A program made the position numbers and the translations under genes. The notes beneath the pieces are model-generated. The model was not told the origin of the DNA and searched no databases. It worked only from the letters and a program-made list of their open reading frames with translations. From Vicugna vicugna (lineage: Eukaryota): DNA of 53,595 nt. Numbering within the stretch: position 1 is the first letter of the stretch; the number at the start of each line of letters is the position of its first letter. Positions 1 to 53,385 of the stretch are shown in pieces. Location of the stretch: assembly GCA_013265495.1 (NCBI GenBank), contig MU057783.1, positions 1 through 53,595 of the forward strand, given 5' to 3'.

Positions 1-610
1 TGGAGACCATCGCCATGGGAAATGCTTGGTGTCAGGAACAATGCACTGGAGCTGGGGAACCTGTGTGTTAAGGGTTTTCCTGTCCTGGGAGTGGGAAGTT
101 CAGACTCTGCCTTAGGAGCTGAGTTTGAATTAATCCTCTTTAGTTTACTGGTCCTCTGACTTTTGTCAAGTTATACACCCTCCTTGAACTCTTGTTTTCT
201 TGTCTCTCAAAATAGGAGAATTAGCCTGCTGCTATATAGTGTTTGATCAGGGTAAATTATTTGTATCTATAAAATGTCACATACTGTCACAAGCTCAAGT
301 AGAAATGGGCTCTCGTCTCTTCTGCAACTCAGTGCTCGATAAGACATCGGGGGAAAGCCAGTCCCTAATTTATGTGTGATGCAATGAGGAACAAAATTAA
401 CGTCTTGCCTTTTACTAGCAGTATTCTTACTCCTTTGCTTCATTTACCTCTTCCCTCCTTTACTCTCCCCTTTCCCCTTCTCCACCAAAAGAGACAAAGA
501 ATCCCTCAGAACACTAGATTCAAATTACTTTAAATGTTGGCTCATCCCCATGAAATGACAGTGACATAAAAAAAAAATCTGTACCACCCCAGACTTGATT
601 GTATTTGATT

Positions 611-631
611 TACACACACACACACACACAA
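611..631. repeat. (CA)n microsatellite in arm A
   Basis: tacacacacacacacacacaa; paralogue of the longer (GT)n at ~17054-17096. Confidence 0.9.
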
Positions 632-1344
632 TCAGCCTACCTCCCATTTGCTGAGGGAGAAGGACCAATTTTTCTGAGTTTTCATTCACTGAGCGTGAGA
701 GCAAAGTCTCTTAAGCAGAATTTCGCCTGGCTTCGTGCATGGTTTCTTAAACTGGATTTCTGCTTTGTGTCCATAGAAATATTCTCCTATTAGAAGAGAG
801 GAAGTGGAGACACAGATATTCTGCTGAGATATTGGTGTCATCATATTTGAGTTGGAAAGGACTTAAGACAGCATAGAGTCGTAACTTTTTATGGGTGAGA
901 ATCCATGATAGTGTAACTTGGACAAGAACCTGGGTCTCCTGCCATTGTACCCAAGTGGGTGAAGAGGCAATTGGGTGGGGGATGGTAGGGATCCTCCTTG
1001 CTTGAGTTCCAGGGTCTTGCTAGTTTTCATTGCTCAGCTGCCTTTAGTTTATGTCCATGTGGCCTCTCATGGGAAGGTCACTCTGTCCTCATAGATTGAG
1101 TTTCTAATCAGCATAAATCTCTGGACCCACTCATATTTCCCAGAGTTTTTCTGCTGACCTGTTGACACTTTAAATAAGTGAGACCTAAAAAACTACTGGA
1201 CATAAAATCCTTATTGTTATCGTTTGCCCTCAAGTTCCATAGGAATGGGGTGCTGTCTCAGGCTGTCTAAAGCGAGATCTGAACAAAGATAAGGTGATAG
1301 GCTGTGCTGCTGGACCCTTCCCAGTAGAATGGAATTTCCACTTT

Positions 1345-1505
1345 AGTTTTCAGAATCAGGCAGATGAGTTCAAATCTTGCCTTTTCCAGTTATTAGCTTT
1401 GTGAACTTGGGGAAGAAACTTTACTTTTTTGGGGTCTAATTTTCTTATCTGCAAATAAGTTCAGTATTTATTATAGGGTTTTTGTTTTAGAATTGAATGA
1501 GCTAC
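1345..1505 (+). mobile_element. MIR SINE fragment (paralogue at ~16180-16340)
   Basis: MIR core-like: cagaatcaggcagatgagttcaaatcttgcc...ttattagctttgtgaacttggggaag...tttcttatctgcaaa. Confidence 0.7.
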
Positions 1506-2117
1506 TTCCCTCATTTATTCCTAAAATACTGATCACATGGCTCTATGCTGGTGCCTTCGTAGTTGAATACTAAGGGACTCATCAGTGAGAATGAGGGTGG
1601 GGCGCCCCGTATCATAGAGCTGATATTCCAGGATATGCTTGAAAAAGACTGGATTACAGTGGATTTTTAGTAAATGCCCATTCCTTTCCTAATCCCCACT
1701 GATTGTGTATATATATGTATACTAATAAATGAACAATTTTTTATTGCAATTTAAATCTCTTTGTAGTATTTAAAATATGTAAGTATAACAAAAATAAATC
1801 AAATAAAATGATTTGACATTTATTTTCCTTTCAATAAGCAAAACAAAATAAAATAGAAAACAAAAGAAAAAGTTTTGTAGGAGTAGAAATACTTTTATTT
1901 CCATTGAATCAACCCCCTATGTTAGGTTTTTCGGTTGTGTTGTTAAACAGCATGCAAAATTGACAGGTTGTGACTTCAGTGTTGATAGCTAGGTGAGTAT
2001 AGTTTCTTTTTGTGGTTGTCTTTGATGAATTATTTGCACTAGATCATAAATGATGTGCATGTTACATATTGGAAACGAGGAAACATTGGAGACATACTAC
2101 CTCCAATGCAGTCATTT

Positions 2118-2650
2118 TGTTACTGAGTCCAAACTCGTTCTGCTCGCCGCATGACAGGCCAATAAACCGAAGATGAGGTGTTGGAGCAAGGAATAGTGAC
2201 TTTATTTGCAAAGCTGGCAGACCCAGAAGATGGCAGAATGATGTCCTGGCAAACCATCTTCCCCAAGTCAGAATTCAGTCTCCTTTTATACTATAAAGGG
2301 TCGGGGGTGTGATTGGTTGTTGCAAACTTCTTGCTGTATGAATTGTCCTTTGAATCCGCTGTTCTTGCAGCTGTCCATGTGGATCAAATCATGGTGCCCC
2401 TATAAAACCTCCAAAAAAACAAAGGTTATTCTCTATTTTGCATCTTGCCATCTCTACATAAGTGCAGATGAGCTAACATTCTTAAAGATCACGGCCCGGA
2501 GAATTGGCTCTCCTGTCGATTTCAGGCTAAAGGCAACTTTCTTTTACAAAAGGTACAGAGCTAGCAAGTCTGAGCCTAGAAAACAGGGCACAGGGTTAAA
2601 GCCAAAGGAACAGACCTAACATGGCGTCAAAATTGTTCTTTTCTATTACA
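2118..2650 (-). mobile_element. ERV1-class solo LTR (arm A copy)
   Basis: TG...CA termini (minus strand TGTAATAG...AGTAACA), TATAAAA-like and AATAAA motifs on the minus strand, 4-bp flanks attt/attc consistent with a target-site duplication. Same family at 15050, 43507 and 44659. Confidence 0.88.
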
Positions 2651-3821
2651 ATTCCCTTTTCCGCTTCATAGATAATTTTTGTAAGAAACATGAGCAATTT
2701 TGTATTTTTGCTTTTCATAACCGATAAGTGGGCCAACTATATTTTTGTGAGCAGGGATGCTTTGCGGGCATAGGGGTCACAGCAAACTCTTGTTGGGGGT
2801 GGCCGACCGTGCAACATGTCTGATGCCCCGTGACTGTTGGTGAGGGTCCCCCTAACCAGGGGCTCTCTTCAGGAACCAGCATATGGGCATTGACTTCTGG
2901 AGACCTCTTTTTCGGCTGCAGGAAATTTTTTCAGATACTGCGATTGAAAAATCACTCCAGCTGGAGATAATTAGGGAAAAAAGGAAAAGGAAAGTGTTTG
3001 GAGTAGAGTAGAAGAGAAGGAAATAAGATCACGGAGCCTGAGTGCTTCGCAGCACGGCCTCAGGAGAGAAGGGAGCAGACGTGGGGTGGGACCTGGCTTC
3101 GGAACCAGCTCCTGCTTGCACCTGTCCCCTTGACCAAGCCACATAGCTTTTAATTGGCCTGAGCCACCTCTCTGGGCTGGATGTCACCCTGGCAGAAACT
3201 TGAGAATCGAAGGTAAGGGGTGGGCAGCACTAACCTAAGGGGTCACTGAGGACTTCGGTCAAGTCCACAGTGCCTTTTCTGGTCATGTGTCTTCACTTGT
3301 CCTTTATCCCAGGATCTGAGGAGGAGGAGCAAGGAACTCAGGGAGAGATCCAGGAAGATATCCGACTGTGTAAAGGGAGGACAGACAAAGTGACAAGGGG
3401 AGTGAGGACACTTGCAGCAAAGTAAAATGACTTCACAACTATTGCTTCAGAGCTGCAGGTGTGAGAGAGCCTAAGCCTTTCTCAGAGTGCAGGGGACAAC
3501 AGGAAAGGAATGGCAAAATTTCCACTGACAATTGAAATTTTGTTAAATAGCCTGCTACTGTTGCTTGTATCACTTGAATGAATGCAGGCATATTTCTGTG
3601 GGCATTTATAGGTTCACTCAAACCCACCAGCCCCTCTTGCCCCCTTGGGGATGGGCTTACTCAAGCACAGTGCCCCTCCTGCTTGGGTGGGCCACACTGC
3701 GGGTCCTCGCCTGGAGCCAGATTGCTGCAGGGCACTGAGTCCCCGAGGCATGGCCTGTGAGACAAGACAGGAACATCTCTGCTCTTGACTGAGGGCCTCC
3801 TTTATCCCCTGCAGTGTAAGA

Positions 3822-3938
3822 ATGCCTGTGACTCAGTTAGAAGCATACTTCAAAGCTGTCCGTGTCCTCGCCATCCAGAAGCGGAGCCTGGAAGCTTCCG
3901 AATTTCTCCAGAAGGCGGTCTACATTCACCTTCAGCAG
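3822..3938 (+). CDS. Candidate coding exon, unknown small protein [39 protein letters not shown] (exon 3815-3938)
   Basis: Acceptor cctttatcccctgcag| at 3814, ATG 7 nt in (agaATGc), strong donor CAG|gtgagt at 3938. Frame, ATG and both splice sites are conserved in the arm B copy. No homologue recognised. Confidence 0.45.
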
Positions 3939-4749
3939 GTGAGTGTATGTCCTTACACAAGTGGAGGAATTACTGCAGATTTCCTGGAACAACTTACTCA
4001 CGTCCATCTGATATTTCTGTGCTAGGATTCAGTATGGCATGCTAAAAATTCTGGAGTCAGATCTTGAAATCCTGATGAAGAGGATTATTTATTTTATTTC
4101 TCCTATATGATAGACTTTTACATTCAAAATTAACAATTTTTGGTTCTTTCAGGAATTTTTTTGGGGGGGGGCGAAACAACATTGTTCTTACCATCTTTGC
4201 GACCTGTTGCTTTGTGCTCTCACCTGTCTTTTGTCACTTGTGAGGCGGTTACATTTGTGACCCTGTCCGGGTTGTTCATGTTATAAAATATAAAGTCTGT
4301 CAAAGTACAGTCCCATTTACTCCGAAGACATTCCACTAATACTACTTAAATCTGAATGTGGGTTTAAGAAGACAGAAACATTAGAACACGTACTTGCAGG
4401 TTGTTAGTGCAAAATCCCCAAATCAATAGTCTAGCTCAACATTTAAATCTTTCTAATATACTTTGGATTTGTATGGATAAGTGAAGCAGTTTGCTAAGAA
4501 CTCAAGACCAGGTTTAGAATACAGGCTGGTGTAGCTCAGCAGGTCCTCCCGAGCCCCTCGCTGTGCATGAGGGCAGGGCTGAGGGGGAGAGGACAGAGCA
4601 GAGGGGAGAGGGTGGGGCCTTGGGGAAAGGGGAGGGCCAAGGAGGAGGGGGGTCCTGCCCTCCCTGAGCTGACAGTTTCATGGCAAATACCTTCACCAGG
4701 TGGAGAACTTGGAATTTCTTCTAAGAATTGTGGGTTTTAAAAGAGTCTT

Positions 4750-5120
4750 AAAAGCACTGGAGTGACACAATCCCATGAGTCTCAAGTAGGAGAGAACAGC
4801 TGGGGGGCCACTTGGGAGACTCGTGAGTCCAGGTGGGCAGTGTTGGCGGCTTCCACCTGAGCGGCATGATGGTCGGTGGGAAAAAGCGAACAGATTGAAG
4901 GCATGTTTAGATGATAAAAAGGAAAGGATTAATGATGTGTGTGAAGGTAGGATGAAGTAAAGCCCAGGTTTCTGGGTGGATTAATGAGGTAAATGATGGC
5001 CCTGCTGTGCTCTGAGGAGGGAAAGCTGCAGAGAGAGTTCTGGGGGAAAACTGATGAGTTCAGGTGTGGATAAAATGAAAGGTTAGATGTGTGGTCTGGG
5101 AGCTCAGGTGAGAGCCAGTA
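4750..5120 (-). mobile_element. L2 LINE fragment (paralogue ~12670-13040)
   Basis: Typical antisense L2 text: cccaggtttctggg...gatgagttcagg...gatgtgtggtctgggagctcaggtgagag. Confidence 0.65.
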
Positions 5121-6028
5121 GTGGGTAGGGGGAGGGGAGAGAGACTTTCAAATCATTTTGTCTTGTGAACATACAAATAAGTATGGGTAATGATACACTT
5201 ACACCTCTATATTCTGGATTTAAAACCCATTAACATTTTGCTATATTGACTGCAGAGGTTCCTAATTGTTTTAATAGAAATAAAATAAATAGAAACAAAA
5301 TAGTGGAGTTAATGAACATCTTAGAGTTGATGTGTGTCCTTGTATGTATTTTGATACCTCATCTGTTTATAACTATAATCTATAAAAAGTTAACTAGTAT
5401 AGCATAAGAGTTAAACAGAGGGACGTGACACATACTGTTGGGGGTTGAAGCTGATTTTCTTGGACAAATTATATAGCCTTTCTGTGCCTTAGTTGCATCT
5501 TCTGTGACTGCCCCCGGACCCCTCATCACAGCTGATTTCCTAGACTAGATGTTGGGAGGGAGGCTGCTGTAGGGAGTGAGAAGTAGTAACTGCTAGGGAT
5601 AATGAAGAGAGAGACAAAAACAGATTAAAGCCGACAAACTCAGTACAAATACCCTCAGAAGAGAAAGAATCCCGCAGTGTTTTGGGCCACTTAGCATAAG
5701 GGAAACAAAACCACATGGACCCAAAGCTCTTGAGCATGTGAGTATTGTGGGTGGGAAGGTGTCATCAAAAAAGGGTTGAGAAAAGGCCTTTTGGTTTCCC
5801 TTGACGTTTCCAGTAAAGATGGGGAGCAGAAGCGAAAACCCCCCGCTTCACAGTTGAAGCTGCTGTTTTGTGTGAAACTGACCAAATGTTGGAGACCAGT
5901 CATCAGCGGTGCTGGCAAATGAAGAGACTTCTGGATTGGGTGGGGCACTTGCTGTGACTTCCAGGTGACCTGCTGGCTGGGGGCTGTGAGGCGGGCAGTA
6001 GGTTTGCAGGGTGACCCGGGCATAATCC

Positions 6029-6139
6029 NNNNNNNNNNNNNNNNNNNNNNNNNNNNNNNNNNNNNNNNNNNNNNNNNNNNNNNNNNNNNNNNNNNNNNNN
6101 NNNNNNNNNNNNNNNNNNNNNNNNNNNNNNNNNNNNNNN
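6029..6139. other. Assembly gap (111 N)
   Basis: Run of N; the paralogous interval in arm B is 11639-11768 (130 bp). Confidence 0.99.
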
Positions 6140-6419
6140 GCGGAGAGTGGAACATCCTCCTGCAGGGGAGGAAGAGCCTCTGAGCAGGGTGCTGGATGCA
6201 CAGGCAAGACCAGCCTGAGCACGGAGGGTTTGGGAAACTGGAAGTCATACAGTGGCCTGAGCAGCCTTGTTCCTGAGGAACTAGAGGGAGAAGAGGCTGA
6301 AAAACCAGCCTTGGGTCCGATCCTGTGGTGGGTTATGAGTGACAGTAAAGGATTGGTCAGGCAGGAACGAGAGAACCCTGTGGGCGTCCCAGCTGGGGCG
6401 TCACGCCGGAGGAAGAAGT

Positions 6420-6530
6420 GGAGTTATAGACTTTGCCACTTATGAGCTGTGTGACTTTGAGCAAGATCACCCCACCTCTCTCTATATATATCTTCATCTG
6501 TAAAGTGACACAGTGATAAGCTCGTGTCAT
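6420..6530 (+). mobile_element. MIR SINE fragment (paralogue ~11245-11355)
   Basis: ctttgccacttatgagctgtgtgactttgagcaag...cttcatctgtaaagtg is the MIR core. Confidence 0.75.
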
Positions 6531-7219
6531 CAGAAGGTTTAGTTTAGATCTGATCCTCTGTGTCCAGTCCTGTCTGTGCTGCCCTGCAAGGTTCTGCAGC
6601 GGCTGCTCTTACCCTGAGAAGGGAGGGTGTAGAGGGACATTGTAGCGCCCGAGGGCAGGAAGGGGTTGTTTTAAAAAACAGACATGTAGCCGCCTGCAGC
6701 TGCAGACCTGCAGGCAGTTTGGTTGATGGTCGTGGAGAGGACTTTGGAGGACTTAGCATCGTCTTAAGACTTGTTTTACCTTGGGGACCGTAATTGCCTT
6801 TGCAGCTTAATGTTGAAGATTTGGGCTTCTGGCAAAGCTGTTTTCAGAGGTGGGTATATAAGTAACATATCGTATAAAATAAGATGCTTTTATTTAATGT
6901 GTGGGACTTTGCAGCTGTTGGGAACAGCTCTGTTGGCCTGGTCTCCACGGAGGACACTAGGGGTCAGCAGAGCGTGCAGGAGGGCAGGCAGCCTGCAGTG
7001 CTGCTGCGGGGGTTTCTCCCCAGCACGGCGCTCTGCTGAGTTGACTCTCTCTGAGTTTGGTTGCCAGATGAGCAGACAGCAAAGTAGTGAGTTCTGGTGG
7101 GATTGTATAATGACAGGAAGAAAGAGGGACCAGTAGATTTTCGGGACTAGAACACGCTTTTGGTTCCTGATCCAGTGTGTTCCATTACAGAATTGATGAG
7201 TTGTGTCTATTCTGGGACT

Positions 7220-7713
7220 TGTCGACTGAAATAAATGTGCAGCCTGAAAGATACGAGTTATGATTTATTTGTCGGGAAGACTCGAGACGGGATGACAGCC
7301 TTCAGATCTGTCTGTGGGACTGCTCCTAAGAAGTATGGGAGGAGCTAGGATTATATAGGAACTTCACAACAAAGACCAGGTAGTTGGAACAATAAAAGAC
7401 TGCTTGTTATCTAAAGAAAACCAGGCATCTCAAGTTCAGGAATTTAGTGCTTTACTATGTATGGGAGGAAGCAAACATTTTGGCTCATTGAATTCATTCC
7501 TTTGACAAGCACCTAGCTATCTAGGGCCAGTATCCTGTCCTTTCTAATTCTGACTCCCCTCAGAGGGCACCATTGTGAGTGGCTGCAGAGGCTGGGCTGC
7601 AGGCCTGTCCTCGCTGGGGGGTGGTGGCAGCTGCTGATGACTTGGTTTCAGCATTCTTTGTTTACTGACATGGTTGCAGTCTTTTCATTCACATTGTAGT
7701 ATTTTCATTGACA
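7220..7713 (-). mobile_element. 3' LTR of an ERV1-class element
   Basis: Minus strand begins TGTCAATG at 7713, just after a polypurine tract (AAGGGGGAG), ends ...GTCGACA at 7220, with TATA-like and AATAAA motifs. Confidence 0.8.
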
Positions 7714-10312
7714 GTGCTCCCCCTTGGTCCTAAATTCGACCAATATTTTGAGAGACATTTCATGACCAATTTTGTCCCTTGGTGCTAAGATGGCTCATTC
7801 CTAGTTCAGGTTGAAGAATCTTCTGACCTGCCATTCAAGGTGTTAGGTGTTTTTATCAGGCCCTGTTGATACTAAAAGTTCTCTGGATTGCCTATCTTAC
7901 TAGTCTATTATGATCCAGGAAATATTTACCCTTCGTTGCTCATTCCCATACCTAGAATCACAGTTACATAAAATTTATACCCCTGCATAAAATAATTGTA
8001 TTTCTTCAAGATGTTTTGCCATCATCAATCTTCTTGTAGGCCTAGTTACACATTGGGAAATGTAAGAGAAAACAACCTTATAAAATTGACAGGATATAAG
8101 TAATAAAGCTAGTAACGTTAATAAACTCAGGAGTAAGAATTTAATAGTCGAGAAGATTTTTTTTGGGTTAAAATTTTGCTTGTGTTTCTCATTGAGTTTG
8201 AGTGATCTTATGAGAAAGTTCATATTTATGGTCAGGCTCAGAGCAGGTAACCCACCTTGTAAGATCAACAGTGGCCTAAACAGAACTATAATTTCTTTTT
8301 AGAATAACGTTTCTGAGGCCTATCTAGTTAGAGCCTTGGAGTAGGGAAAGCCACCAAGGTAACACAGAAGTACTAGACATAGGTAATTTACCATAAACTT
8401 AACAATTGGAGTAGTTCATAATCAAAGGTAGGAGAAATTATCAAAGTAATTGGTATACAGGCCTGGTCCGGTGTCTTGAGTCAGCTGTCTATCTCAGATG
8501 TCTTCTTCTCATCCTGGCCTGGTAGCTTTTTCTCCATTTCGGCATTGTTTTAAGGTGAGCAGTGCTCTATAGGCCACTGCACTGCAGGGGCTCTTTCTGA
8601 TTGGAAATGAATCCGAAAGTCAGTTTCCTTCAGCTTTGCTGTGTATGGTCTAGTTAAGAGTACCTGATAAAGAGTCCTTCCATTCAGGTTGGAGACAGTT
8701 TTTTAAGTCATGCCTATTCCAGTATGTATAATCCCCAGGCCGCAGGTCATGGGGCATTGGATCTTTACCCAAGGATATATTACTAAGCTTCAGAAAGAAA
8801 CATACAGTGTCCTTTTAATAATTCAATTAAACTTTGCAGCAATGTAACCTAACAGCAAGGAATGATCTGGGAAGTGTCTTACTAAATATATATCTCAATT
8901 AACAAAACTAGAATTTAATATCCACTAAAATATAATCTTTTGCTCTCTAAAGTTCCCTCATTTTTATCAAATATAGTCAAATCAAGGTTAATTTGTTTAC
9001 AAGTTAAGTCTGATTATTTGATCATATAGGCTTTTTTAAATTGGCTGTGTTGGAACTTTTAATAAGGACTTTTAAGGTGGAATGTTAATAAGGTTTTCTA
9101 AGGCCAGGAAAGCCCCGTCAAGGGCTTGTCATAGATTTCTGCCTAACAGATTTAGGTAAATTCTTTTCTTTTTGAAGTCCTTAAAATGCCTTGAGATTCC
9201 TATATCTGTTAGGAGATGATCTTCGTAATTTATCTGATAGAGCCACTGGGGACCTAAAAGATTTTAGTCTCTTGAGGGATCAGATAGAGAGAAAAGATAA
9301 CTGTTCTAAGTCTGCTTACATAGGTATAATTTATCAAATTGCCGTGAATCATAACTAGTTTAAGGAGAAGAGTTTCTTTATGTCTGGGAAACAGCTTAAA
9401 AGCCAGTAGTATTTCACACAAAATCAAAAATTATAACCATATTCACCAGTTTAATCATTCCCATGTAACTAATTCTTTTAATCAGAGTTTTCATTAGACC
9501 TTTAAAATTTCTTACCCAGTTTATTTCAGTGCTATAGTTTGAAATTTATTAGAAATCAGTAAATCTCCTTGAAGAGAGAGCATTTTGCAAAATCATAAGA
9601 AGAAAACAATTACCTGCCTATAAATGACAACAGATTTAACAGCATGGTTAAACAACGTTACACTGTAATCGATAAAGAAACCTGGTCACAATAACCAGAA
9701 TTATGACTGGTAACATTTCAAATATACCAGAATTTTAGGGAGTCCATATAATTTCTAGAATATCTATATTAATATTTTCTCATACAATATAACCTAGGAA
9801 GATTCATTATTCATTTGACAAATATTCATTTGACTTCCCATGTTATTTAACATGCCAAATGAAACTTACTACTTTAAAATCTCTCTTTGAGATGTTTCAG
9901 GGACCCTTTGTAGCAAGCCAAAGTTAACTGGAGACTAAAAGAACTTTAATGAGAAACTGATATTTGGGGAGCTTGTTAAAAGTTTTCAAAACACTTGGTC
10001 AGATAAACGTATAGATCACTATAAAGTAGTACTTATTCATTAACAAGAAAATATTTCAAAGGTAAAGGCAGAACAGATCACTTAAGTCGCATAAGAAGCT
10101 TTACTATTTGTTACTGAAGGTGGATTAACATTTTAAGAAAATTTTGTCCTCTTAACAAAGAGAAAACCAAATCTAGTCTTGTACCAGCTTACTTCTAAGA
10201 TTCATTTACTTAGAGCAAATTGATTCTAAACTTAGCCAATTCCGACCATGTACAAAACTCTTTCCTCAGGGTTCCTCTTCCACAAGCCTTCCACAGTTTT
10301 CTATACTCGTAT
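7714..10312 (-). mobile_element. Degenerate, internally deleted ERV1 internal region (integrase C-terminus and env TM/tail remnants)
   Basis: Minus strand ~8600-8755 reads, with frameshifts, HDLRPGDY..LQPEWK..YQVLLT..TAKL..IH, the gammaretroviral integrase C-terminal GPY-type region. ORF 7975..8268 has a hydrophobic stretch (FLLLSLLTLLALLLISC) followed by a tail where env TM is expected, just before the PPT. Confidence 0.8.
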
Positions 10313-10768
10313 TGTTATGGAAACGACAGGCCAGTCAAGAAACAAGCACCACTCGGAGGGTTGGAGTACTCAGATCTATTTAGCCGGCGGGCTCAGAGGG
10401 GCTTCTGCTAGAAAGCTCTGAGCACCTTCAAGACGTGCACATGAGGTTTTATAGGGTAAAGTACAAGCTTGGGGTATTCGGCCAATAGGCATGGAACAGC
10501 TTTAGCAGCATTATCATCACAAAAGTGGAGGCGGGGAGGCAGCAAACCAACATTTCAAGGCTAGATATGTCTCTTTGAAAATCCAGCTGGCTAGCAAAAA
10601 ACATAAGCAAACCAAATTAACTTAGATTTACAAGTTAGTCTAGCAGAACTCAGATCAGTATTCCAATACTTAGACTTGTGAGTTACCTTGTTAGCCCAGC
10701 CCAGCATCTCCTTCACATTCCTAGACTGGTGAGTTAACCTGTTAGACCAGCCCTGCATTTCCTTCACA
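10313..10768 (-). mobile_element. LTR of a second ERV family with a tandem ~48-bp duplication at its right end
   Basis: Termini tgttatgg...ccttcaca (TG..CA), TATAAAA on the minus strand, not similar to the LTR at 7220-7713. Repeated unit tagac.tgtgagtta.c.tgttag.ccagccc.gcat.tccttcaca at ~10670-10716 and 10722-10768. Confidence 0.75.
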
Positions 10769-10894
10769 AGAGTAGAGCGCCGTGCTGGTGAGAACCCTCC
10801 CGCACGCTCTGCTGACCCCTAGTGTCCTCCGTGGAGACCAGGCCAACAGAACTGCTCCAACAGCTGCAAAGTCCCACACATTAAATAAAAGCAT

Positions 10895-10900
10895 TTTATT
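10895..10900 (-). terminator. Candidate polyadenylation signal AATAAA for an inward-pointing transcript in arm B
   Basis: Minus strand tataaAATAAAatgcttttatttaatgtgtggg with U/GU-rich downstream sequence; the arm A paralogue at 6878-6883 is AATAAG. Confidence 0.4.
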
Positions 10901-13808
10901 TTATATGATATGTTACGTATATACTCATTTCGGAAAACAGCTTTGCCAGAAGCCCAAATCTTCAACATTAAGCTGCAAAGGCAATTACGGTCCCCAAGGG
11001 AAAGCAAGTCTTAAGACGATGCTAAGTCCTCCAAAGTCCTCTCCAGGACCGTCAGCCAAACTGCCTGCAGGTCTGCAGCTGCAGGCGGCTACATGTCTGA
11101 TTTTAAAGCAACCCCTTCCTGCCCTCGGGAGCTACAATGTCCCTCTACGCACTCCCTACTCAGGGTAAGAGCAGCCGCTGCAGAACCTTGCAGGGCAGCA
11201 CAGACAGGACTGGACACAGAGGATCAGATCTAAACTAAACCTTCTGATGACACGAGCTTGTCACTCTGTCACTTTACAGATCAAGATATATGTAGAGAGA
11301 GGTGGAGTGATATTGCTCAAATTCACAGAGCTCATAAGTGGCAAAGTCTATAACTCTGCTCCTCCCTCCGGCGTGACGCCCCAGCTGGGACGCCCACAGG
11401 GTTCTCTCGTTCCTGCCTGACCAATCCTTTACTGTCACTCATAACCCACCACAGGATCTGACCCAAGACTGGTTTTTCAGCCTCTTCTCCCTCTAGTTCC
11501 TCAGGAACAAGGCTGCTCAGGCCACTGTATGACTTCCGGCTTCCCAAACCCTCCGTGCTCAGGCTGGTCTTGCCTGTGCATCCAGCACCCTGCTCAGAGG
11601 CTCTTCCTCCCCTGCAGTAGTATGTTTCCACTCTCCACAGGGACACCCACAAAGGGGAGCCCTCCTCTCGCCCTCAGCACGGCAGGTGTCCAAGGCCACA
11701 TCCCGAGCTGCCCCATTAGGACTGCGGGTGCCCAGGTCTGCTAGTCAGACCAGCAGCCTCAGAGCCAGGGATTATGCCCGGGCCACCCTGCATACCTACT
11801 GCCCCCCTCACAGCCCCCAGCCAGCAGGTCACCTGGAAGTCACAGCAAGTGTCCCACCCAATCCAAAAGTCTCTACACTTTCCACCACCGCTGACGATTG
11901 GTTTCCACCCTTTGGTCAGTTTCACACAAAACAGCATCTTCCACTGAAGCGGGGGGTTTTTGCTTCTGCCCCCCATCCTTACTGGAAACGTCAAGGGAAA
12001 CCAAAAGGCCTTTTCTCAACGCTTTTCTGATGACACCTTCCCACCCACAATACTCACATGCTCAAGAGCTTTGGGTCCACGTGGTTTTGTTTCCCTTATG
12101 CTAAGTGGCTCAAAACACTACGGGATTCTTTCTCTTTTGAGGGTATTTGTATGTACTGTTTATTGGCTTTTATCCGTATTTGTCTCTGTCTTCAGTGTCC
12201 CTGGCAGTTGCCACTTCTCACTCCCCTCATCAGCCTCCCTCCCAACATCTAGTCTAGGAAATCAGCTGTGATGAGGGGCCCGGGGGCAGTCACAGAAGAT
12301 GCAACTAAGGCACAGAGAGGCGACATAATTTGCCCAAGAAGATCAGCTTCAACCCCCAACAGTGTGTGTCACGTCCCTCTGCTTAACTCTCATGCTAAAC
12401 TAGTTAACTTTTTATAGATTATGGTCATAAAGAGAGGAGGTATCAGAATACATATAAGGACACACATCAACTCTAAGATGTTCATTAACTACACTATTTT
12501 TTTCTATTTCAATTAAAAAAGGTAAGAACCTCTGCAGTCAATACAGCAATGTTAATGGGTTTTAAAATTAAGTTCAGAAGATAGATGCGTAAGTATCTTA
12601 TTACTCATAATTTTTTTTATGTTCACAAGACAAAATGATTTGAAAGTCTCTCTCCCCTCCCCCTACCCACTACTGGCTCTCACCTGAGCTCCCAGACCAC
12701 ACATCTAACAGCCTTTCATTTTATCCACACCTGAACTCATCAGTTTTCCCCCAGAACTCTCTCTGCAGCTTTCCCTCCTCAGAGCACAGCAGGGCCATCA
12801 TTTACCTCATTAATCCACCCAGAAACCTGGGCCTTACTCTATCCTACCTTCACACACATCATTCATCCTTTCCATTTTTATCATCATGCCTTCAATCTGT
12901 TCGCTTTTTCCCACCGACCATCATGCCGCTCAGGTGGAAGCCGCCAACACTGCCCACCTGGACTCACGAGTCTCCCAAGTGGTCCCCCAGCTGTTCTCTC
13001 CTACTTGAGACACATGGGATTGTGTCACTCCAGTGCTTTTAAGACTCTTTTAAAACCCACAATTCTTAGAAGAAATTCCAAGTTCTCCAACTTGTGAAGA
13101 TCTTTGCCATGAAACTGTCAACTCAGGGAGGGCAGGACCCGCCCTCTCCCCTCGGCCCCGCCCTCTGGCACTGCGAGGGGCTCAGGAGGACCTGCTGAGC
13201 TACACCAGCCTGTATTCTAATCCTGGTCTTGAGTTCTTAGCAAACTGCTTCACTTACCCATATAAATGCAAGGTAGATTAGAACGATTTTAGATGTTGAG
13301 CTAGAATATTTATTTGGGGATTTTGCACTAGCAACCTGCAAGTACATTTTCTAATGATTCTGCCTTCTTAAAACCACACCCAGATTTAACTAATATTTGT
13401 GGAATGCCTTCAGAGTAAAAAAAAAAAAAAAAAAACTGTAATTTCACAGACATCATGTTTTTATATGATGAAAATCCCTGACAGGGTCACATATGGAACC
13501 GCCTCACAAATGACAGAAGACAGATGAGAGGCATAAAGTAACAGGTCGCAAAGATGGTAAGAGCAAAGTTGTTTCTCCAACCCCAAAAAATTCCTGAAAG
13601 GACTGAAAATTCTGAATTTTGAATGTATAAGACTATCATATAAAGAAATAAAATAAATAACCTTCTTCATCTGGGTTTCTTGATCTGACTCCACAGTTTT
13701 TAGCAGGTCATACTGAACCCTAGCACAGAAATATCAGATGGACGAGTGGTGAGTAAGTTCCAGGAAAACTGCAGTAAATCCTCCACCTGTATGAGGGCAC
13801 ACACTCAC

Positions 13809-13925
13809 CTGTCGAAGGTGAATAGCAACCGCATTCTGGAGAAATTCAGAAGCTTCCAAGCTCCGGTTCTGGATAGTGAGGACACAGACAGATTGAATGC
13901 ACGCTTTTAAATCAGTCACTGGCAT
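13809..13925 (-). CDS. Paralogous candidate coding exon [39 protein letters not shown] (exon 13932-13809)
   Basis: Acceptor ctttttccccctgcag|, ATG at 13925, donor CAG|gtgagt; 27/39 aa identical to the arm A copy, no indels. Confidence 0.45.
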
Positions 13926-15049
13926 TCCTACACTGCAGGGGGAAAAGGAGGCCCTCAGTCAAGAGCAGAGATGTTCCTGTCATGTCCCGCAAGCGGTGCC
14001 TCAGGGACTGAGTGCCCTGCAACAGCCCAGCCCCAGGCGAGGACCCGCAGCGTTGCCCACCCAAGCAGGAGGGGCACTGTGCTTGAGAAAGCCCATCCCC
14101 GATGGGGGCAAGAGGGGCTGGTGGGGTTGAGTGAACCTATAAATGCCCACAGAAATACACCTGCATTCATTCAAGTGATACAAGCAAAAGTAGCAGGCTA
14201 TTTAACAAAATTTCAATTGTCAGTGGAACATTTGCCATTCCTTTCCACTTGTCCCCTGCACTCTGAGACAGACTTAGGCTCTCTCACACCTGCAGCTCTG
14301 ATGCAATAGATGGAAATTCCTTTTAATTTGCTGCAAATGTCCTAGCTCCCCGTGTCACTGTGTGTGTCCTCTCTTAACACAGTGGATGTCTTACTGGATC
14401 TCTCCCTGAGTTCCTTGCTCCTGCTCCTCAGATCCTAAGATAAAGGACAAGTGAAGACACATGACCAGACAAGGCACTTCCCACCCTTTACATTCAGTTC
14501 TCAAGCTTGTGCCCAAGGTGACATCCAGCCGGAAGAGTTGCCCAGGCCAATTACAAGCTGTGTGGCTTGGGTGCAGGGACAAGTGCAGGAGCTGGTTTCG
14601 GGGCCGGGCCCCACACCACTCTGTTCCCCTCTCTCCCGAGGCCCCGCTACCAAGCCCCCAGGCTCTCTGAAATTTTCCCCTCTTCTTCTACTCTACTCCA
14701 AACACTTTTCCTTTTCCTTTTTTCCCCAATTATCCCCAGCTGGAGTGATTTTTCAATCACAGTATCTGAAAAAATTTCCTGCAGCTGAAAAAGAGGTCTC
14801 CAAAGATAAATGCCCATATTCTGGTTCCTGAAGAGAGCCCCAGGCTGTTGGGACCCTCACCAATACTCAGAGGAGCATCAGACATGTTGCAGGGTCGAAA
14901 ACCCCCAACACGAGTTTGCTGATACCCCAAGGCCCGCACAGCATCCCTCCTCACAAAACTGTAGTTGGCCCACTTATCAGTTATTAAGAAGCAAACATAC
15001 AAAATTGCCCATGTTTCTTACTAAAATTATTTGAGGTGGAAAAAGAAAT

Positions 15050-15585
15050 TGTAATAAAAAGAACAAATCTGACTCCATGTTAGACCTGTTCCTTTGGCTT
15101 AACCCTGTGCCCTGTTTTCTAGGCTCAGACTTGCTAGCTCTGCACCTTTTGTAAATGAAAGTTGCCTTTAGCCTGAAATATCCAGGAGAGCCTATTCTCC
15201 GGGCTCTGATCTTTAAGGATGTTAGCTCTTCTGCACTTATGTAGAGATGGCAAGTTGCAAAATAGAGAATAACCTTTGTTTTGTTGGAGGTTTTACAGGG
15301 GCACCATGACATGACCCACAAGGACAGCTGCAAGAACAAAGGACTCCAAGTACAAACAATTCGTACAGCTAGAAGTTTGCAACAACCAACCACACCCCCG
15401 CCCCTTTTCAGTATAAAAAGAGCCTGAATTCTGACTTGAGGAAGAGGCTTCTCCAGGAAATCATTCTACCATCTTCTGGGTCTGCCAGCTTTTCAAATAA
15501 AGTCACTGTTCCTTGCTCCAACACCTCATCTCCTGGTTTATTGGCCTGTCATGCAGCAAGCAGAACGAGTTTGGACTCGGTAACA
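15050..15585 (+). mobile_element. ERV1-class solo LTR (arm B copy)
   Basis: TGTAAT...GTAACA termini, TATAAAA ~15412, AATAAA 15496-15501, flanks aaat/caat. Same insertion site as 2118-2650, so it predates the duplication. Confidence 0.88.
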
Positions 15586-17052
15586 CAATGATTGCATTGG
15601 AGGTAGTATGTCTCCACTGTTTCCTCGTTTCCAATATGTAACATGCACATCATTTATGATCTAGTGCAAATAATTCGTCTAAGACATCCACAAAACGAAA
15701 CTATACTCACCTAACTATCAACACTGAAGTCACAATTTTATATGCTGTTTAACAACACTACCAAAAATTCTAACATAGGGACTTGATTCCATGGAAATAA
15801 AATTATTTCTACTTCTTCAAAACTTTTTTTCTTTTCTATTTTATTTTGTTTTGCTTATTGAAAGGAAAACAAAGTCAAATCATTTTATTTCACGTATTTT
15901 GGTTATAGCTACATATTTTAAATACTACAAAGAGATTTAAATTGCAATTAACTGTTCATATATTAGTATAAAGATATATACACAATCAATGGGGATTAGG
16001 AAAGGAATGGATATTTACTAAAAATCCACCGCACATCCAGTCTTTTACAAGCATATCCTGGAATATAAGCTCTATTATCCAGGTGACCCCACCCCCATTC
16101 TCACTGCCGAGTCCCTTAGGAAACAACTACCAAGGCACCAGCATGGAACCACGCGATCAGTATTTAGGAATGAGGGAATTAGCTCATTCAATTCTAAAAC
16201 AAAAACCCTAAAATAAATACTGAACTTAATTACAGATAAAGAAAATTGGACCCAAAAATGTAGTTTCTTCCCCAAGGTCACAAAGCTAGTAACTGGTAAA
16301 GTCAGGATTTGAACTCAGGTCTGCCTGATTCTAAAAACTAAGATGGGAATCCCATTCCACTGGGGAGGGTCCAGCAGCACAGCCTATCACCCTGTCTTTG
16401 TTCAGATCTAGCCTTAGGCAGCCTGAGACTGCAACCCATACCTATGGAACTTGAGGGCAAATGATAACAGTAAGGATTTTATATCAAGCAGTTTCTTAGC
16501 TCTTATGTATAAAGTGTCAGCAGGTCGGAAGAAAAACTCTGGGAATTATGAGTGGGTCCAGAGCTTTATGCTGATTAGAAACTCAATCTATGAGGACAGA
16601 GTGACCTTCCCATGAGAGGCCACATTTACATAAACTAAAGGCAGCTGAGCAATGAAAACTAGCAAGACCCTGGAACTCAAGCAAGAAGGATCTCTGCCAT
16701 CCCCCACCCAGTTGCCACTTCACCCACGTGGACACGATGGCAGAAGACCCATGTTCTTGACCAATTTACCCTATCATGGATTCTCACCCATAAAAAGTTA
16801 TGACTCCATGCTGTCTTAAGTCCTTTCCAACTCAAATATGATGACACTAATATCTCAACAGAATGTCTAGGTCTCCACTTCCTCTCTTCTAATAGGAGAA
16901 TATTTCTATGGCCACAAAGTAGAAATCCATTAAAAAAAAAAAAAACCCACGAAGCCAGTCGAAAGTCTGCTTAAGAGACTTTGCTCTCACACTCAGTGAA
17001 TGAAAATTCAGAAAACGTGGTCCTTCTCCCTCAGCAAGTGGGAAGTAGCTGG

Positions 17053-17053
<1 letters not shown>

Positions 17054-17096
<43 letters not shown>
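17054..17096. repeat. (GT)n microsatellite
   Basis: About 21 TG units. Confidence 0.95.
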
Positions 17097-17100
<4 letters not shown>

Positions 17101-18129
17101 CAAATGCAATCAAGTCTGGGATACGTACAAATTTTTTTTATGTCACTGTCATTTCATAGGGATGAGCCAACATTTAAAGTAATTTGAATCTAGTGTTCTG
17201 AGAAATCCTCAGGCTCTTTTGGTGGAGGAGGGGAAAGGAAAGGAGGAAAGAGGTAAATGAAGCAAAAGAGTAAGAATATGGCTAGGGAAAAATAAGATAT
17301 TAATGTTGTTCCAACTTGCATCACATACAAATTAGGAACTGGCTTCCCCCCCCCGCCCCAATGTCTTGTCGAGCACTGAATTGCAGAAGAGACGAGAGCC
17401 CATTTCTACTTGAGCTTGTGACAGTATGTGACATTTTATAGATACAAATAATTTACCCTGATCAAACACTATATAGCAGCAGGCTAATTCTCCTATTTTG
17501 AGAGACAAGAAAACAAGAGTTCAAGGAGGGTGTATAACTTGACAAAAGTCAGAGGACCAGTAAACTAAAGAGGATGAATTCAAACTCAGCTCCTAAGGCA
17601 GAGTCTGAACTTCCCACTCCCAGGACAGGAAAACCCTTAACACACAGGTTCCCCAGCTCCAGTGCATTGTTCCTGACACCAAGCATTTCCCATGGCGATG
17701 GTCTCCAGGTCTCACAGACACAGCGCTCTGTGCAGCCAATGACCTTGATCGGACCTTGATCATCTACCTACCACGCCCACCAGGCTTCACCATATAGGCA
17801 GGAGAGCTGGCTTTCAAGTGCATACAAAGCCACCCCTGGTCTAACCTGGGCTCTTCTGCGGCTTCTCCAGCCTGAAGGCAGCCATGAAACTGCTCAGTTT
17901 GTTCATGAGCCACACTGTCTCTCTCCATCTGTCTCCCCACCTATACTACTTAGTTATGACCATTTTGATAATCTTGGAAACAAATTTTTTAAAAACAGAA
18001 AAGAAAGGGCTCTGGAACAAGTACTTAACACTTACAATTTTAAATGACAAGTTACAAAGTGAGTATTTACAAAACGAATCTGCCTTTCTAGGTGTCAGTT
18101 TTAAGCAGTTAAAAAATATATAGCAAAAA

Positions 18130-20548: not shown

Positions 20549-20781
20549 AGAAACAAGTAACTAGGAGTCACCGCAGCAGCGCCACACAATGTAGAACGGG
20601 CGATCCTGATTAACACCGCGCAGCTACATAAGGACCCACAAAGTGAGAGCACCTGCTGTAACAGGGCACGGCCCCCTTCTATTTCTCAGTTGTGTCTTCA
20701 GGGCTGAGGCAGTTCTGAGCACGGTCAGTGTCAGTGCTGTTGTCTGGATGGATGCCACTGGAGGTGAGGGCACCTGCAAGC
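20549..20781 (-). other. Candidate exon of the minus-strand transcript
   Basis: Acceptor atttctgttcttcctctag|GCTTG; donor TCT|gtaagt. Confidence 0.5.
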
Positions 20782-26200: not shown

Positions 26201-26980
26201 AACAAAAGCACCTCGGGCCAGTACCTTCCAATAGTAAATGTAAATTGCCAACTTTTATTAGAGGAAGAAGAAACTGCCCTCAGCATGAAAGCAGGAGATC
26301 AGCAAATGTGAGTTAACCGAAATTGGACAAGAGCATTTCACTTGAAACAGTTGCTGAGTGTACACGAAATATTCAGACATGACAAGGAAAAAATCAGCTT
26401 GACGAAGCAGCATTCTGCTTCAAATGCAGATCAAGGATTCGGCAAGCCCAGCTGCTAGAAGGGACCAGAGAAGAAACCTGGTTCTTAAAACAAGCACCAG
26501 AGCCAACAAGGAAATGGTGCTGAGGAAAGCAGGCGGCTGAAAATCTGGAGCAGTTTGCTACAAACAATTTCTCCACCGAAAATTCAAAAATAAAATGAAA
26601 GTGATGCGATGCTGTGCTGGCCTCACGTGAACGGGCTTCCTCCAGTGTTCGACAGTTCTGTAACCCCGAATGAGAGACTCAGGAGAATCAGCATGGCTCC
26701 TGGGAGTCCACAAGGGACTGCCCACCAGCACGCTGACCACCATCACATCTGCCAGGGTTGAATTGCAGAGAAGAGACCAACTACTGAAAGGCACAGGAAA
26801 TGTTGACAAGGGAAGAAAAGGCTGGTTTCAGTCCTTGGACAGAGGCCCTGTGAGCAGAGGCCAGAAGTCTGCAGATGAACTGAAGTGGCCCTGGGGCAGG
26901 AATGGACCACGGGAGAGCAGACCTCAATTCTCTCCTCGCTGTGCCTCAGGTCGGAGAGATAAAGCCTGCATCCTTCTCAC

Positions 26981-27039
26981 CTGAAACTGTGGGTTATGGC
27001 TGGCAGAAGTCCCACTGAGACGGAATGAATTACTCAAGA
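26981..27039 (-). other. Candidate exon (59 nt)
   Basis: Acceptor gagttttcccacag|; donor CAG|gtgaga. Confidence 0.35.
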
Positions 27040-27837: not shown

Positions 27838-28035
27838 CTGGTAAAACACCTAATTCTCCTGCAGGTGAATTCAGTACTTTCCATTGGGTCAGTCTGTGCT
27901 CTCTGACTTCTTTTGGTCAAATACCGATAGATCTAATTGATTTCATTGTTCATCAATTTCAGCCTGGAGGTGAGGGAGTGTCACTCTGTTCCTCAGCCCA
28001 CCCTCAACTCTTTTCTCATCAGCAACTCAGGCCTC
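27838..28035 (-). other. Candidate non-coding exon (198 nt)
   Basis: Strong acceptor ttctttgttttgttttcag|GAG; donor CAG|gtagaa; stops in all three frames. Confidence 0.4.
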
Positions 28036-28835: not shown

Positions 28836-28862
28836 CTGGATCAATGAGAACTTCTTGTACAG
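28836..28862 (-). other. Candidate 27-nt micro-exon
   Basis: Acceptor cctcttctttctttcag|CTG; donor CAG|gtacat. Confidence 0.4.
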
Positions 28863-29726: not shown

Positions 29727-29855
29727 GGAGGGTGGGTATAGCTCAGTTGTAGAGCAACTGCTTAGCATGCACAAGGTCCTGGCTTCAATCCCCAGTATCT
29801 CCATAAAAATAAATAAAAATAAACGCCTATTTAAAAAATAAGAATAAAGTTATAA
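29727..29855 (+). mobile_element. tRNA-derived SINE, Vic-1 (camelid) type
   Basis: gggtatagctcagttgtagagc...cttagcatgcacaaggtcctggcttcaatccccagtatctcc followed by an A-rich tail; A and B boxes; target-site duplication taagtgcagac / taaatgcagac. Confidence 0.88.
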
Positions 29856-36912: not shown

Positions 36913-36996
36913 CTCCAAGCCACAGAAAGTCATTCACTGACTGGAGCAGCTCCAGGACAAATGGTGATGGACCAGGGAGTCCTACAGCATCCCGGC
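36913..36996 (-). other. Candidate exon (84 nt)
   Basis: Acceptor tttgtacctacag|GCC; strong donor GAG|gtaagg; open phase-1 frame RDAVGLPGPSPFVLELLQSVNDFLWLG. Confidence 0.5.
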
Positions 36997-38143
36997 CTGT
37001 AGGTACAAACCCCCGTGTGTTTCCGCATGCGCCCTGGTGATGTCCAGAAAGTAAAATGCACAGAAATGTCTCACTGATGTTACACGACCCCAAAATTGAC
37101 CTCAAGTCATGCTGGCAAAGCACTACTCAACCCTCTCATTACAAAAAAAAAAAAGTTAAGAAGGCAAATTTAGGCTCTTCCATTGAAAACCAGCAACCAT
37201 CACTGCCAGTATCTCAGCTGGGATGGTCCTGACTTCAAAAACCACTACGCAGTTACATTTCAATTGTGATAGGCATATATGTATTTCACGTAGATGATAT
37301 TACAGAAGGATTTTTCCTTTCAAAATTTCCATTTGCAACATTAGCACAAGAAAATTTATGTTTCAGCTTTAAAAAAATGAATTATCTTCCACTTTCTTAA
37401 TTTTGAACCTATTATTATTTTATAAAGGGAGCTATGCTGCAGATTATAAACCAACTGTTTGGCTTCTGCAAACAAGACCTTAATGACCTCACTATTTCAG
37501 AGCAAGCTTTAATGATGCTTTGAGAGGTGGGGCCTGGAGCACTCACTAACAGCTCTTTAAATACTGACAAGGATGTGCTATTAAGTAATGCAAAGGCTCT
37601 AACCCCACATTAGCTCAGAAAGCAAAGAAACTACAATGAAGCATTACTTTATCATTTTTAATTATTCCTATTCTTTTGAATATTAAAGTTCTTTAAAGAT
37701 AAGATTTTTTTTTGAGAAAGACAGCAGCTGTATTAAATTTCCTCTCACCGAGAAAGCAATCTTTATCAAGAATAAAAACCCCTATGGAAATCCAAAAGAC
37801 GGGACGTTTCTAGCTAAGTGAACATGCAGCTCTCAACACAAACCTAAATCCTATCAGATTTCCCTCGAACGAGCTCAACAAAGTTCTGGGCTACCCTGGA
37901 ACTTAGCTCTTCTGTTCCATATGTTGGCTGAGCTAAGATTATCACACAAGGCAGGGAAGGAGAGAAGAGGAAAGTCCACCTGGCTGCCTCCATCTGTTTT
38001 CTTCCAGCCACAAGGCGCCGCTCGAGCGACCCCGCTAACAAGCCCTCCCCATAAGGAAATCCGGCATCCATTGGTGGCCTCCCAGCCTGTGAATGGTCTT
38101 CTAATGACCCTCCCAGTTGGTGACACCCTCCCCCTCTCCCCCG

Positions 38144-41910: not shown

Positions 41911-42089
41911 TATAGCCCTGCCCCCACTCTTCAGCTCATTTTTAAGTGAATCAAGCCCTGCTTTCAACACTGTGATCCCTCTCGCTATAAAAACATGTGA
42001 CATCAACAAGCACCCCCATCCTAACACCAGAAAAAGTGTTAAAGGTATTTACCTGGGGCAGAAAGACTGAGGGAGGAGAAAGAAACAAG

Positions 42090-42870
42090 CTCAGCGCTGG
42101 CGCTCTATTTTCCCAAGGCTCTGCCAAGAGAAGCTGGGCTTTACAGCCGGAGGCTCTCAGCCCGGGGAACAGCGCCCACGCCATTGAGTTGGACCTCGGG
42201 GAGCGGGAAAGGGAGAGGAGGGCAGCCCCAGGGTCCCGCAGCAGGGAAGGCGGCGGGGGAGAGGGCTGCAGCCCCGCTTGGAGGCCAGTCCCAGCCACTG
42301 CCCCTGCCCCCACCCGGCTCCGCAGACCCCGCCGACCCGGGACACAGCCCGCCGAGGGGTAGGGTGGGATCTGCGACAGAGGAGAGGAAGCCCGCGAGGA
42401 GAGGGCTGGCGGCGGGAGAAGGGAAGGGAACGCCGGCCAGGGACCTAGGGGAGCCCGGCTGGGGAGAGAGGCGGCAGGTGCGGGCCGCGGCAGGGACGGG
42501 GGTGGCCGGGCCCCCAGCAGGCGAGCGCCCGGCCCTGGACAGGTGTGGCAGGGGCTCCGGGGCAGGTGGCGCAGGCATAGGGGGCTGGCGGGAGCCCCTG
42601 AGCTGGACACGCGCTGACTCGCGCCCTCGTGGGCTGTGACACACAGACCCCCTTCTCCCGAGCCCCCCACCTTGCACTTACACAGCTGGAGGCCCCGGCC
42701 TGGGGCAGGAGCCAACGGCCCAGCGGGCGGCGGAGCCCAACAGACTCTGGGGCCGATCCCCAGATTGGAGCCGGAGCTTCGGACCCGCGGTCCAGCCGGC
42801 ACAGACCCTGTGCTTGAGCAGGAGGGCCAGAGCCACTCTGGGTTCTGCGAGAGACGCTGGGGAGTCGAGG
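42090..42870. promoter_or_regulatory. CpG island / probable promoter and first exon(s) of a minus-strand transcript
   Basis: The only extended GC- and CpG-rich tract in the window, with a GC box (gggcgg ~42725) and a consensus minus-strand donor TGT|gtaagt at 42682. Confidence 0.85.
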
Positions 42871-43506
42871 GAGGGAGAAGATGGTAGGGGGGATGAAAGG
42901 AGGGGAAAAGTGAAGGGAGAGAGATTGATGGAAGGAGGAGCAGGGAGGAGGGAGGGGTCCGGAGGGAGAAGGGGAAGAGGAGTAGCAGAGATGGAGAGAA
43001 AAAGCTTTACCTTCAGGGGCACCACGAAGGAGGCGCCAGTCCTGCCTATGTGCCCCTCTCTAGCCCCTCAAGGCCCGCAGCTCAAATTTCACCTCCCTGC
43101 TCCAGCCCTCCAGCCTAGGCCCCTGCAGAACCCCTAAGGGAATCACACCCATTGCTCCCATGAGGAACTGGGTTTCCTGTCGCTCCTGGAACCAAGCACC
43201 CACAGGCGTTGTTGCTTAGAACTACTTTAGGAAGAGTATAAATTCCTCTTTTACAGGCTGGGAAACTGAGGCAGGCACGATCTCTGCCTTAGCTGCACTG
43301 TCCCAGCTGTTGGGCTGGCGAGGAGAGGGAGGTACAATGTCAGGGCCCCAGATGGAGTAGACTGCCTGAGTGTTGGTGCATAGTCCCCATCCCTCCTGGG
43401 TAAACCACTCCCCACCCTAGGAGAACCATCAAGGGCTCACAGTAGGTCCCTGGATGTGGGAGATCTGTCCTCAGCACCAGTGACCAGCTTGCTAGGTAGA
43501 TAACAG

Positions 43507-53362: not shown

Positions 53363-53385
53363 NNNNNNNNNNNNNNNNNNNNNNN
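53363..53385. other. Assembly gap (23 N)
   Basis: Run of N. Confidence 0.99.

Follow-up and report, generated by a model that had tools for sequence, protein, structure and literature searches.

A segmental duplication is a genomic copy of at least 1 kb with an identity of at least about 90%. The primate core duplicons NPIP/morpheus, GOLGA8 and TBC1D3 are transcribed, lineage-specific, dispersed cassettes that give rise to chimeric gene models. Here we analyze a camelid duplication at the start of a stretch of 53,595 nucleotides (nt) from Vicugna vicugna (assembly GCA_013265495.1, contig MU057783.1, positions 1 to 53,595 of the forward strand; "the window" means this whole stretch). Two arms of about 7 kb, arm A and arm B, lie there in opposite orientation around a spacer, and both derive from the gene TRAPPC9 (NIBP, Trs120; PF08626). 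We think it probable that the arms are an old inverted segmental duplication, and that both belong to a family of partial TRAPPC9 copies that is dispersed and specific to camelids. The structure is of an ordinary kind, pseudogene fragments duplicated long ago in inverted orientation, and the family is the more interesting object. It is like the core duplicons in being a dispersed cassette with chimeric gene models, and unlike them in that the window shows no sign of an intact, selected reading frame.

Primate X palindromes, as PMC8327919 describes them, have arms of 8-140 kb that are up to 99.99% identical, and their centres are unstable; spacer inversions in sex-chromosome palindromes are documented by the same source. 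The window is like them in its inverted arms, its spacer of a few kb and its unstable centre. On the other hand, those palindromes hold intact gene families (PMC8327919), whereas the 7 kb visible here are 91% identical and hold pseudogene fragments. If a sex-chromosome palindrome is taken to have arms of at least 8 kb and more than 99% identity, then the visible arms fall short, with 91% over 7 kb and only 327 bases above 99%.

Within camelids, the alpaca genome has pseudogene-rich blocks with NEK10-, FMN2-, ATF5- and ABHD17A-like sequences, described in PMC13751797 and read there as duplication followed by decay. They resemble the TRAPPC9 family in that both consist of many fragmented gene copies in camelid genomes. 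But the blocks are local and, in the account given there, absent from camel assemblies, while the TRAPPC9 family is found on many records from three species; the main text of that paper does not mention TRAPPC9. A literature search, with supplements and subscription journals (among them the VicPac4 paper) outside its scope, found no description of camelid TRAPPC9 copies, and text searches of PMC6598621 and 10.1101/2024.11.22.624925 gave nothing relevant.

Two inverted arms and a broken TRAPPC9 fragment

Self-BLAST of the window gives minus-strand matches of 1-6028 with 17707-11769 and of 6142-6984 with 11636-10795, interrupted by nothing but the run of Ns inside arm A. A single local alignment joins 1-7037 with 17707-10771 and reaches base 1. 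Both agree with an earlier, sequence-only reading of this DNA, which took 1-7037 to be the reverse complement of 10771-17707 and the match to run to the first base. The alignment has 587 mismatches in 6719 aligned bases (8.7%; Kimura two-parameter (K2P) distance 0.093; 91.3% identity) and 60 gap events. The divergence near 10% given by that reading holds as an overall figure, 8.7% with 60 gaps, but it is not uniform, ranging by segment from 0.3% to 13.3%. A single gap-free contig, 6140-53362, takes in the whole of arm B, the spacer and the innermost 0.9 kb of arm A.

What is duplicated is 7.0 kb of genomic sequence at 91.3% identity, with introns and nested repeats. An exon bounded by AG and GT, its introns and a nested long terminal repeat (LTR) shared by both arms bear out the proposal of a segmental duplication, and they exclude a transposon or terminal inverted repeat. 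Likewise, the introns exclude a retrocopy, and 8.7% divergence with 60 gaps excludes an allelic duplication. The shared LTR does sit at matching sites in the two arms, as had been claimed: its ends are TG...CA, and its 4-base flanks are ATTT/ATTC at 2118-2650 and ATTG/ATTT at 15585-15050. The stretches near 1360-1460 and 4740-5100 are presumably MIR- and L2-like.

A simple splice-site scan of both arms chose the same 124-nt exon in each, with the frame open in both and with splice sites that score highest within the arm. In arm A, translation from the ATG at 3822 would keep to the parent frame for 39 codons, and the two exons differ at 24/124 bases and 13/41 residues. A search with the exon returned 15 protein matches among 22 candidates, 14 of them camelid proteins called "TRAPPC9-like" or uncharacterized, and a wider search gave 71 representatives, full-length TRAPPC9 included, matched at residues 342-378. 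We had considered the exon as part of an unknown small gene, and dropped this after the TRAPPC9-like matches. The parent protein (XP_003473346.2, hereafter P0079) is identical at 29/37 residues to the arm A exon and at 25/37 to that of arm B. Since 42 parent codons imply 126 nt, the 124-nt form with its new ATG is a shared derived state.

When full-length TRAPPC9 proteins are compared to the window, four parent exons are found in parental order on the minus strand, with introns between them. One is a mini-exon, its match to residues 289-296 placed at 28857-28834; taken alone this match has an E-value of 16, and it gains credence solely from its splice sites and from lying in the right order on the right strand. 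No match below E 0.28 covers parent residues 1-202, 244-288 or anything from 379 on; of a protein of 1148 residues the window holds only parts of 203-378, disrupted by stops and frame changes. Such disabled exons, kept in order and separated by introns, mark an unprocessed pseudogene fragment. The same search places the next parent exon in neither arm; a candidate remnant of it at 992-1045/16637-16696 (E 0.04-0.7) was set aside as probably chance.

A broken TRAPPC9 fragment that retains its introns therefore runs from the GC-rich island at 42-43 kb to a 3′ end formed by arm B, and its last exon and introns occur a second time, in the opposite direction, as arm A. This is the tail-to-tail paralogue pair that had been suggested, with both arms TRAPPC9-derived and both pointing at the spacer. 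The island, whose donor at 42053 is also the donor of a Bactrian camel gene model (P0056), is probably the fragment's first exon and promoter. The features are collected in Table 1.

Table 1. Coordinates of the arms, spacer, exons and related features in the window.
Feature	Position	Strand	Remarks
Arm A	1..7037	+ (TRAPPC9 sense)	One TRAPPC9-derived exon and flanking intron; truncated at window start
Near-identical tract	1..327	.	Pairs with 17707-17381; 1 mismatch in 327
Shared LTR-like insertion, arm A	2118..2650	.	TG...CA; upstream exon in 23/56 family models
Candidate upstream exon	3313..3458	+	AG...GT; used in family models P0029, P0041, P0054; stops in three frames
124-nt exon, arm A	3815..3938	+	TRAPPC9-derived, parent residues about 337-378; derived ATG 3822
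Assembly gap, 111 N	6029..6139	.	Within arm A; arm B counterpart 130 bases, in register both sides
Arm A continuation	7038..7235	.	198 bases, no second copy in window; probably parent intron
LTR1	7236..7713	-	TG...CA; purine tract just ahead on minus strand; 3′ LTR of decayed endogenous retrovirus
Decayed retrovirus-like internal sequence	7714..10312	-	2.6 kb; many stops in all six frames
LTR2	10313..10768	-	TG...CA; unrelated to LTR1; ends 2 bases from arm B
Arm B	10771..17707	- (TRAPPC9 sense)	Exon and introns as in arm A
124-nt exon, arm B	13809..13932	-	ATG at 13925
Shared LTR, arm B copy	15050..15585	.	TG...CA ends
Preceding TRAPPC9 exon	20652..20774	-	56% identical to parent residues 296-336, interrupted by a single in-frame stop
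TRAPPC9 mini-exon, 27 nt	28836..28862	-	Parent residues 289-296 (8/8 match); AG...GT intact
TRAPPC9 exon remnant	36914..37034	-	Covers parent residues 203-243, with a stop and two shifts of frame
GC-rich island	42053..43050	-	GC 0.73-0.74, CpG observed/expected 0.58; 15/56 family models match

A dispersed family in three camelids

We compared 129 proteins at the start of this exon, and we use the predicted models among them as evidence of related DNA elsewhere, not of proteins. The derived start, M/I-P-V/M, is present in 58 of the 129, and 62 have the parent reading. Two of the 58 are the window's own, and the other 56 all come from alpaca, Bactrian camel or dromedary. If the derived start is the mark of membership, then both arms and these 56 models belong, in a clade with a support of 100. 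Counting one protein per distinct record length, the derived start occurs in 19/19 alpaca, 5/6 Bactrian and 3/3 dromedary records, so that the copies lie on at least 19, 5 and 3 records in these species. Many dispersed copies in one lineage are a trait of core duplicons. A metagenome scan had 126 pattern matches with 0 confirmed, and a second scan had 0.

In RefSeq these copies appear as "trafficking protein particle complex subunit 9-like" and uncharacterized models of Vicugna pacos, Camelus bactrianus and C. dromedarius. Models such as XP_074215187.1, XP_064339167.1, XP_031528357.1 and KAB1271970.1 have the derived start, the LTR exon and pieces of the island as in the window. In contrast to both arms, 11/56 models run on into the next parent exon. 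The shared LTR is matched by 23/56 models, the 20.6-kb exon by 5 and the GC-rich island by 15, and pieces at 25-27 kb are matched too. With matches to pieces anywhere between 2 and 45 kb, the models show that the window is for the most part family sequence. A dromedary model, P0041, matches 17924-17847, outside the outer end of arm B and upstream of its exon, which fits an arm that continues beyond base 1. The models carry N- and C-terminal parts that are unrelated, and in many cases these are LTR or island sequence in translation. At 26950-28030 there is another LTR-like element that includes internal sequence, and pieces of it and of 25.9-26.8 kb occur in alpaca models.

The inverted pair proposed by the sequence-only reading is real, but to see it as a local two-copy event overlooked that the arms belong to a dispersed family of many copies. 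The locus has its use in marking a large duplication family of camelids, annotated piecemeal in RefSeq, whose copies can mislead association studies and the mapping of reads. As an example, a dromedary association study gives two single-nucleotide polymorphisms (SNPs) on chromosome 14 near 31.08 Mb, labelled TRAPPC9 and POFUT2 (PMC10357240), and these SNPs may lie in a family copy and not in the parent TRAPPC9.

Origin of the inverted pair

Are the two arms each other's closest relatives? We built a tree of 24 rows by 41 columns, from the 2 arms, 17 hand-picked models of the 56 camelid ones and 5 TRAPPC9 outgroups. All camelid copies form one clade (support 100), within which arm B groups with the dromedary model P0054 (94) and arm A falls in another clade (91). 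Forcing the arms to be sisters is rejected by the approximately unbiased (AU) test, with p=0.036. The arm A exon shares 37/41 residues with a Bactrian copy vs. 28/41 with arm B. With the arms in different sub-lineages, a recent fold-back origin appears unlikely, an indication that is weak with 41 columns; an old fold-back that seeded both lineages is possible.

The alternative that a single old fold-back here, by template switch or hairpin, made both arms, with the family's two sub-lineages arising here or with conversion from other copies later obscuring the history of the exon, is one that we consider doubtful. Both arms end in the same intron, with about 200 bases at most between them, and have all insertions in common, as a fold-back would have it, and an old one followed by outward copying would also split A and B between clades. 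However, the inner end of arm B lies 2 bases from an LTR terminus and resembles an integration junction rather than one left by a fold-back, and the arm A exon is nearer to the Bactrian copy than to arm B.

In the spacer, LTR1 and LTR2 align with a best local score of 24, vs. a maximum of 28 for shuffled sequences. The flanks of the spacer's outer ends do not match as a target-site duplication would, nor do LTR2's own flanks, and no primer-binding site is seen behind LTR2. A single provirus was thus rejected: the LTRs are unrelated, the flanks differ and the primer-binding site is not seen. The sole protein signal is a weak one, an integrase C-terminal match (PF18697) at 8653-8814 whose E-value of 0.008 does not reach the cut-off, and none of the six frames, read with X at stops, has a Pfam match in the spacer. 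The spacer is retroviral debris, composite and not one insertion. Of the 3.7 kb that had been called a retroviral spacer, about 200 bases (7038-7235) lie outside the part bounded by LTRs.

Under the reading that we favor, an old duplication of two family members, the events could have run as follows. A piece of TRAPPC9 would have been duplicated in the camelid ancestor; a net loss of 2 bases at the exon start would have made the shared ATG, an LTR would have been gained, and the family would then have spread. Two copies, already diverging, would have been placed tail to tail. The DNA between them, which would have carried the next exon, would have been lost, most simply by recombination of two LTR2-type elements, one in the arm B intron and one from the retrovirus in the arm A intron, leaving a single LTR with unmatched flanks. 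Finally, occasional intrachromatid gene conversion may have homogenized tracts at different times.

The divergence between the arms is patchy. Change-point analysis of the arm alignment divides it into 1-327 at 0.3% (1 mismatch in 327), 328-2613 at 9.4%, 2614-4477 at 13.3% and 4478-7037 at 5.7%, and this unevenness is matched by 0/2000 shuffles. The first 327 columns have 1 mismatch where about 29 are expected (binomial p 3e-12), and in the shuffles the fewest in any 327-column window is 8. Gene conversion at different ages would be the simplest cause. There is no GC bias between the arms (239:228), and polarizing their differences with two other LTR copies gives 18 and 12 changes, too few to use. 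The first tract could reflect conversion, the collapse of a contig end, or a larger palindrome, nearly identical in its arms, whose inner edge it would be.

Could 328-17380 be the eroded centre of a much larger palindrome, with true arms outward from 327 and 17381? This is compatible with an old duplication of family members, and as a claim about this locus we find it unlikely. The tract with its single mismatch and a match that reaches base 1 are what such a palindrome would show at its inner edge, and the centres of primate palindromes are unstable in the description of PMC8327919. Still, only 327 bases are visible, which conversion over a short distance or collapse at the contig end would explain equally, and other homogenized tracts adjoin the spacer and not just the outer side. 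If the outer arms were near-identical, the window would give a rare view of a palindrome centre outside primates and mouse. Recurrent inversion, for which the arms had been called a substrate, is possible but unsupported, as the longest perfect runs between the arms are 195, 131 and 120 bases and an identity of about 91% is far below that of the sex-chromosome palindromes with documented spacer inversions.

An assembly artefact in part of the structure, with 1-6028 a scaffolded paralogue or 1-327 filled from arm B reads, seems quite improbable. A family of many copies and an N gap inside an arm do invite such errors, and a sequencing-run search with 3000-4500 found part of it in 20/24 rows and half of it in none, the best run holding a share of 0.26 of the sampled words, which is a lead only and no evidence. 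But mis-scaffolding across the N gap would be unlikely, since the register is kept, the 111 N come close to the 130 bases of arm B, and divergence is similar on either side (6.2% of 1474 to the left, 4.8% of 867 to the right). For the inner arms, the gap-free stretch holds 0.9 kb of the inverted pair together with the spacer, so the case made earlier against allelic misassembly stands there.

Transcription, coding potential and other features

Transcription probably runs in one direction, starting at the island and following the minus strand, and we predict its product to be a non-coding or decaying transcript. In two family models, P0056 and P0014, the island and the 20.6-kb exon splice into the 124-nt exon. 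In the sequencing-run search, six RNA rows share 0.07-0.09 of the sampled words of 3000-4500, too small to count as evidence. Transitions between the arms favor G.U pairs on a minus-strand RNA by 185:132 (p=0.003; 151:110 outside CpG), and A/G transitions stand at 91:59. The latter is near the germline transcription asymmetry of 1.66 that PMC5586376 gives for human, so one-way transcription or replication asymmetry would suffice without selection.

One could instead propose a functional hairpin: read-through from the island across arm B, spacer and arm A would fold into RNA paired at 91% over about 7 kb, and this RNA, edited or diced, would regulate the family. Long hairpin RNA loci are described for mouse Optn and Anks3, and transcribed inverted repeats yield endogenous small interfering RNAs (endo-siRNAs) in mouse (PMC11239679); the transition bias and the splicing of P0056 and P0014 point the same way. 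Yet mutation linked to transcription or replication gives the same bias without selection, the bias is missing beside the loop, and there are 13 AATAAA/ATTAAA poly(A) hexamers on the minus strand between the arm exons, in inner arm B and the spacer, while LTR2 could end the transcript. We regard a functional hairpin as very improbable. The chances are just as slim for a larger construction on top of it: that a transcribed TRAPPC9 cassette with a new start is a camelid core duplicon spread over dozens of loci, that a large palindrome has its eroded centre at this locus, and that the locus's 7-kb read-through double-stranded RNA silences or edits the family in the germline. No function is needed to explain the arms.

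As for coding potential, the frames read through from the ATG have 67 and 63 residues. None of the 13 window peptides has a Pfam match at the curated cut-off, and PF08626 is matched by 1 of 8 related proteins, with E 0.0005. A search of the window peptides in the Atlas had a best value of 0.88, with none at 0.9, and is uninformative. The exon diverges at 19% vs. 13% around it, and the upstream exons carry stops, so we see no sign of constraint on the exon in this comparison. By the Nei-Gojobori method (NG86), nonsynonymous and synonymous divergence are dN 0.17 and dS 0.45, with dN/dS 0.39, on 39 codons that are too few to interpret. The least credible alternative is a pair of young protein-coding genes whose derived ATG begins a functional peptide of 63-67 residues or a spliced form: the frame is open in both arms, the ATG is retained in most family models and the splice sites have the top scores, but dN of 0.17 is above the surrounding divergence of 0.13, the models have unrelated termini and were ascertained for open frames, and the peptides match nothing in Pfam and nothing in the Atlas at 0.9.

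Several points weigh against the reading that we favor. The tree is weak evidence, resting on 41 residues of predicted proteins, with 17 of the 56 models hand-picked and a borderline p, and conversion from a third copy could yield the same tree. What we say of the order and age of events, and of LTR recombination, is inferred from a single sequence. The dN/dS ratio, together with a frame open in both arms, is compatible with some constraint. The inner segments lack the transition bias or show it reversed (29:22 and 9:16), and a bias of the same sign would be expected from replication asymmetry.

The usual mammalian transition/transversion ratio is about 2. Here it is low: 317:270 (1.17) between the arms, 130:123 when isolated mismatches are counted, and 0.9-1.5 when LTRs are compared in six pairs among the copies at 2118-2650, 15050-15585, 43507-44000 and 44657-45190; this is not special to the arms. 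The last two copies, of the arm-LTR family, lie just upstream of the island in opposite orientation, 650 bases apart and 14% diverged. A second assembly gap, of 23 N, is at 53363-53385. Elsewhere in the window, 47300-47550 is an inverted match to 48171-48419 (250 bases, 73% identity), and an exact direct repeat of 44 bases, 38190-38233 and 38705-38748, 515 apart, lies beside an AC microsatellite. Outside the arms, 29732-29803 has an Rfam tRNA match of 39.5 bits and by eye looks like the head of a tRNA-derived short interspersed element (SINE), and a similar element is near 34860-34930.

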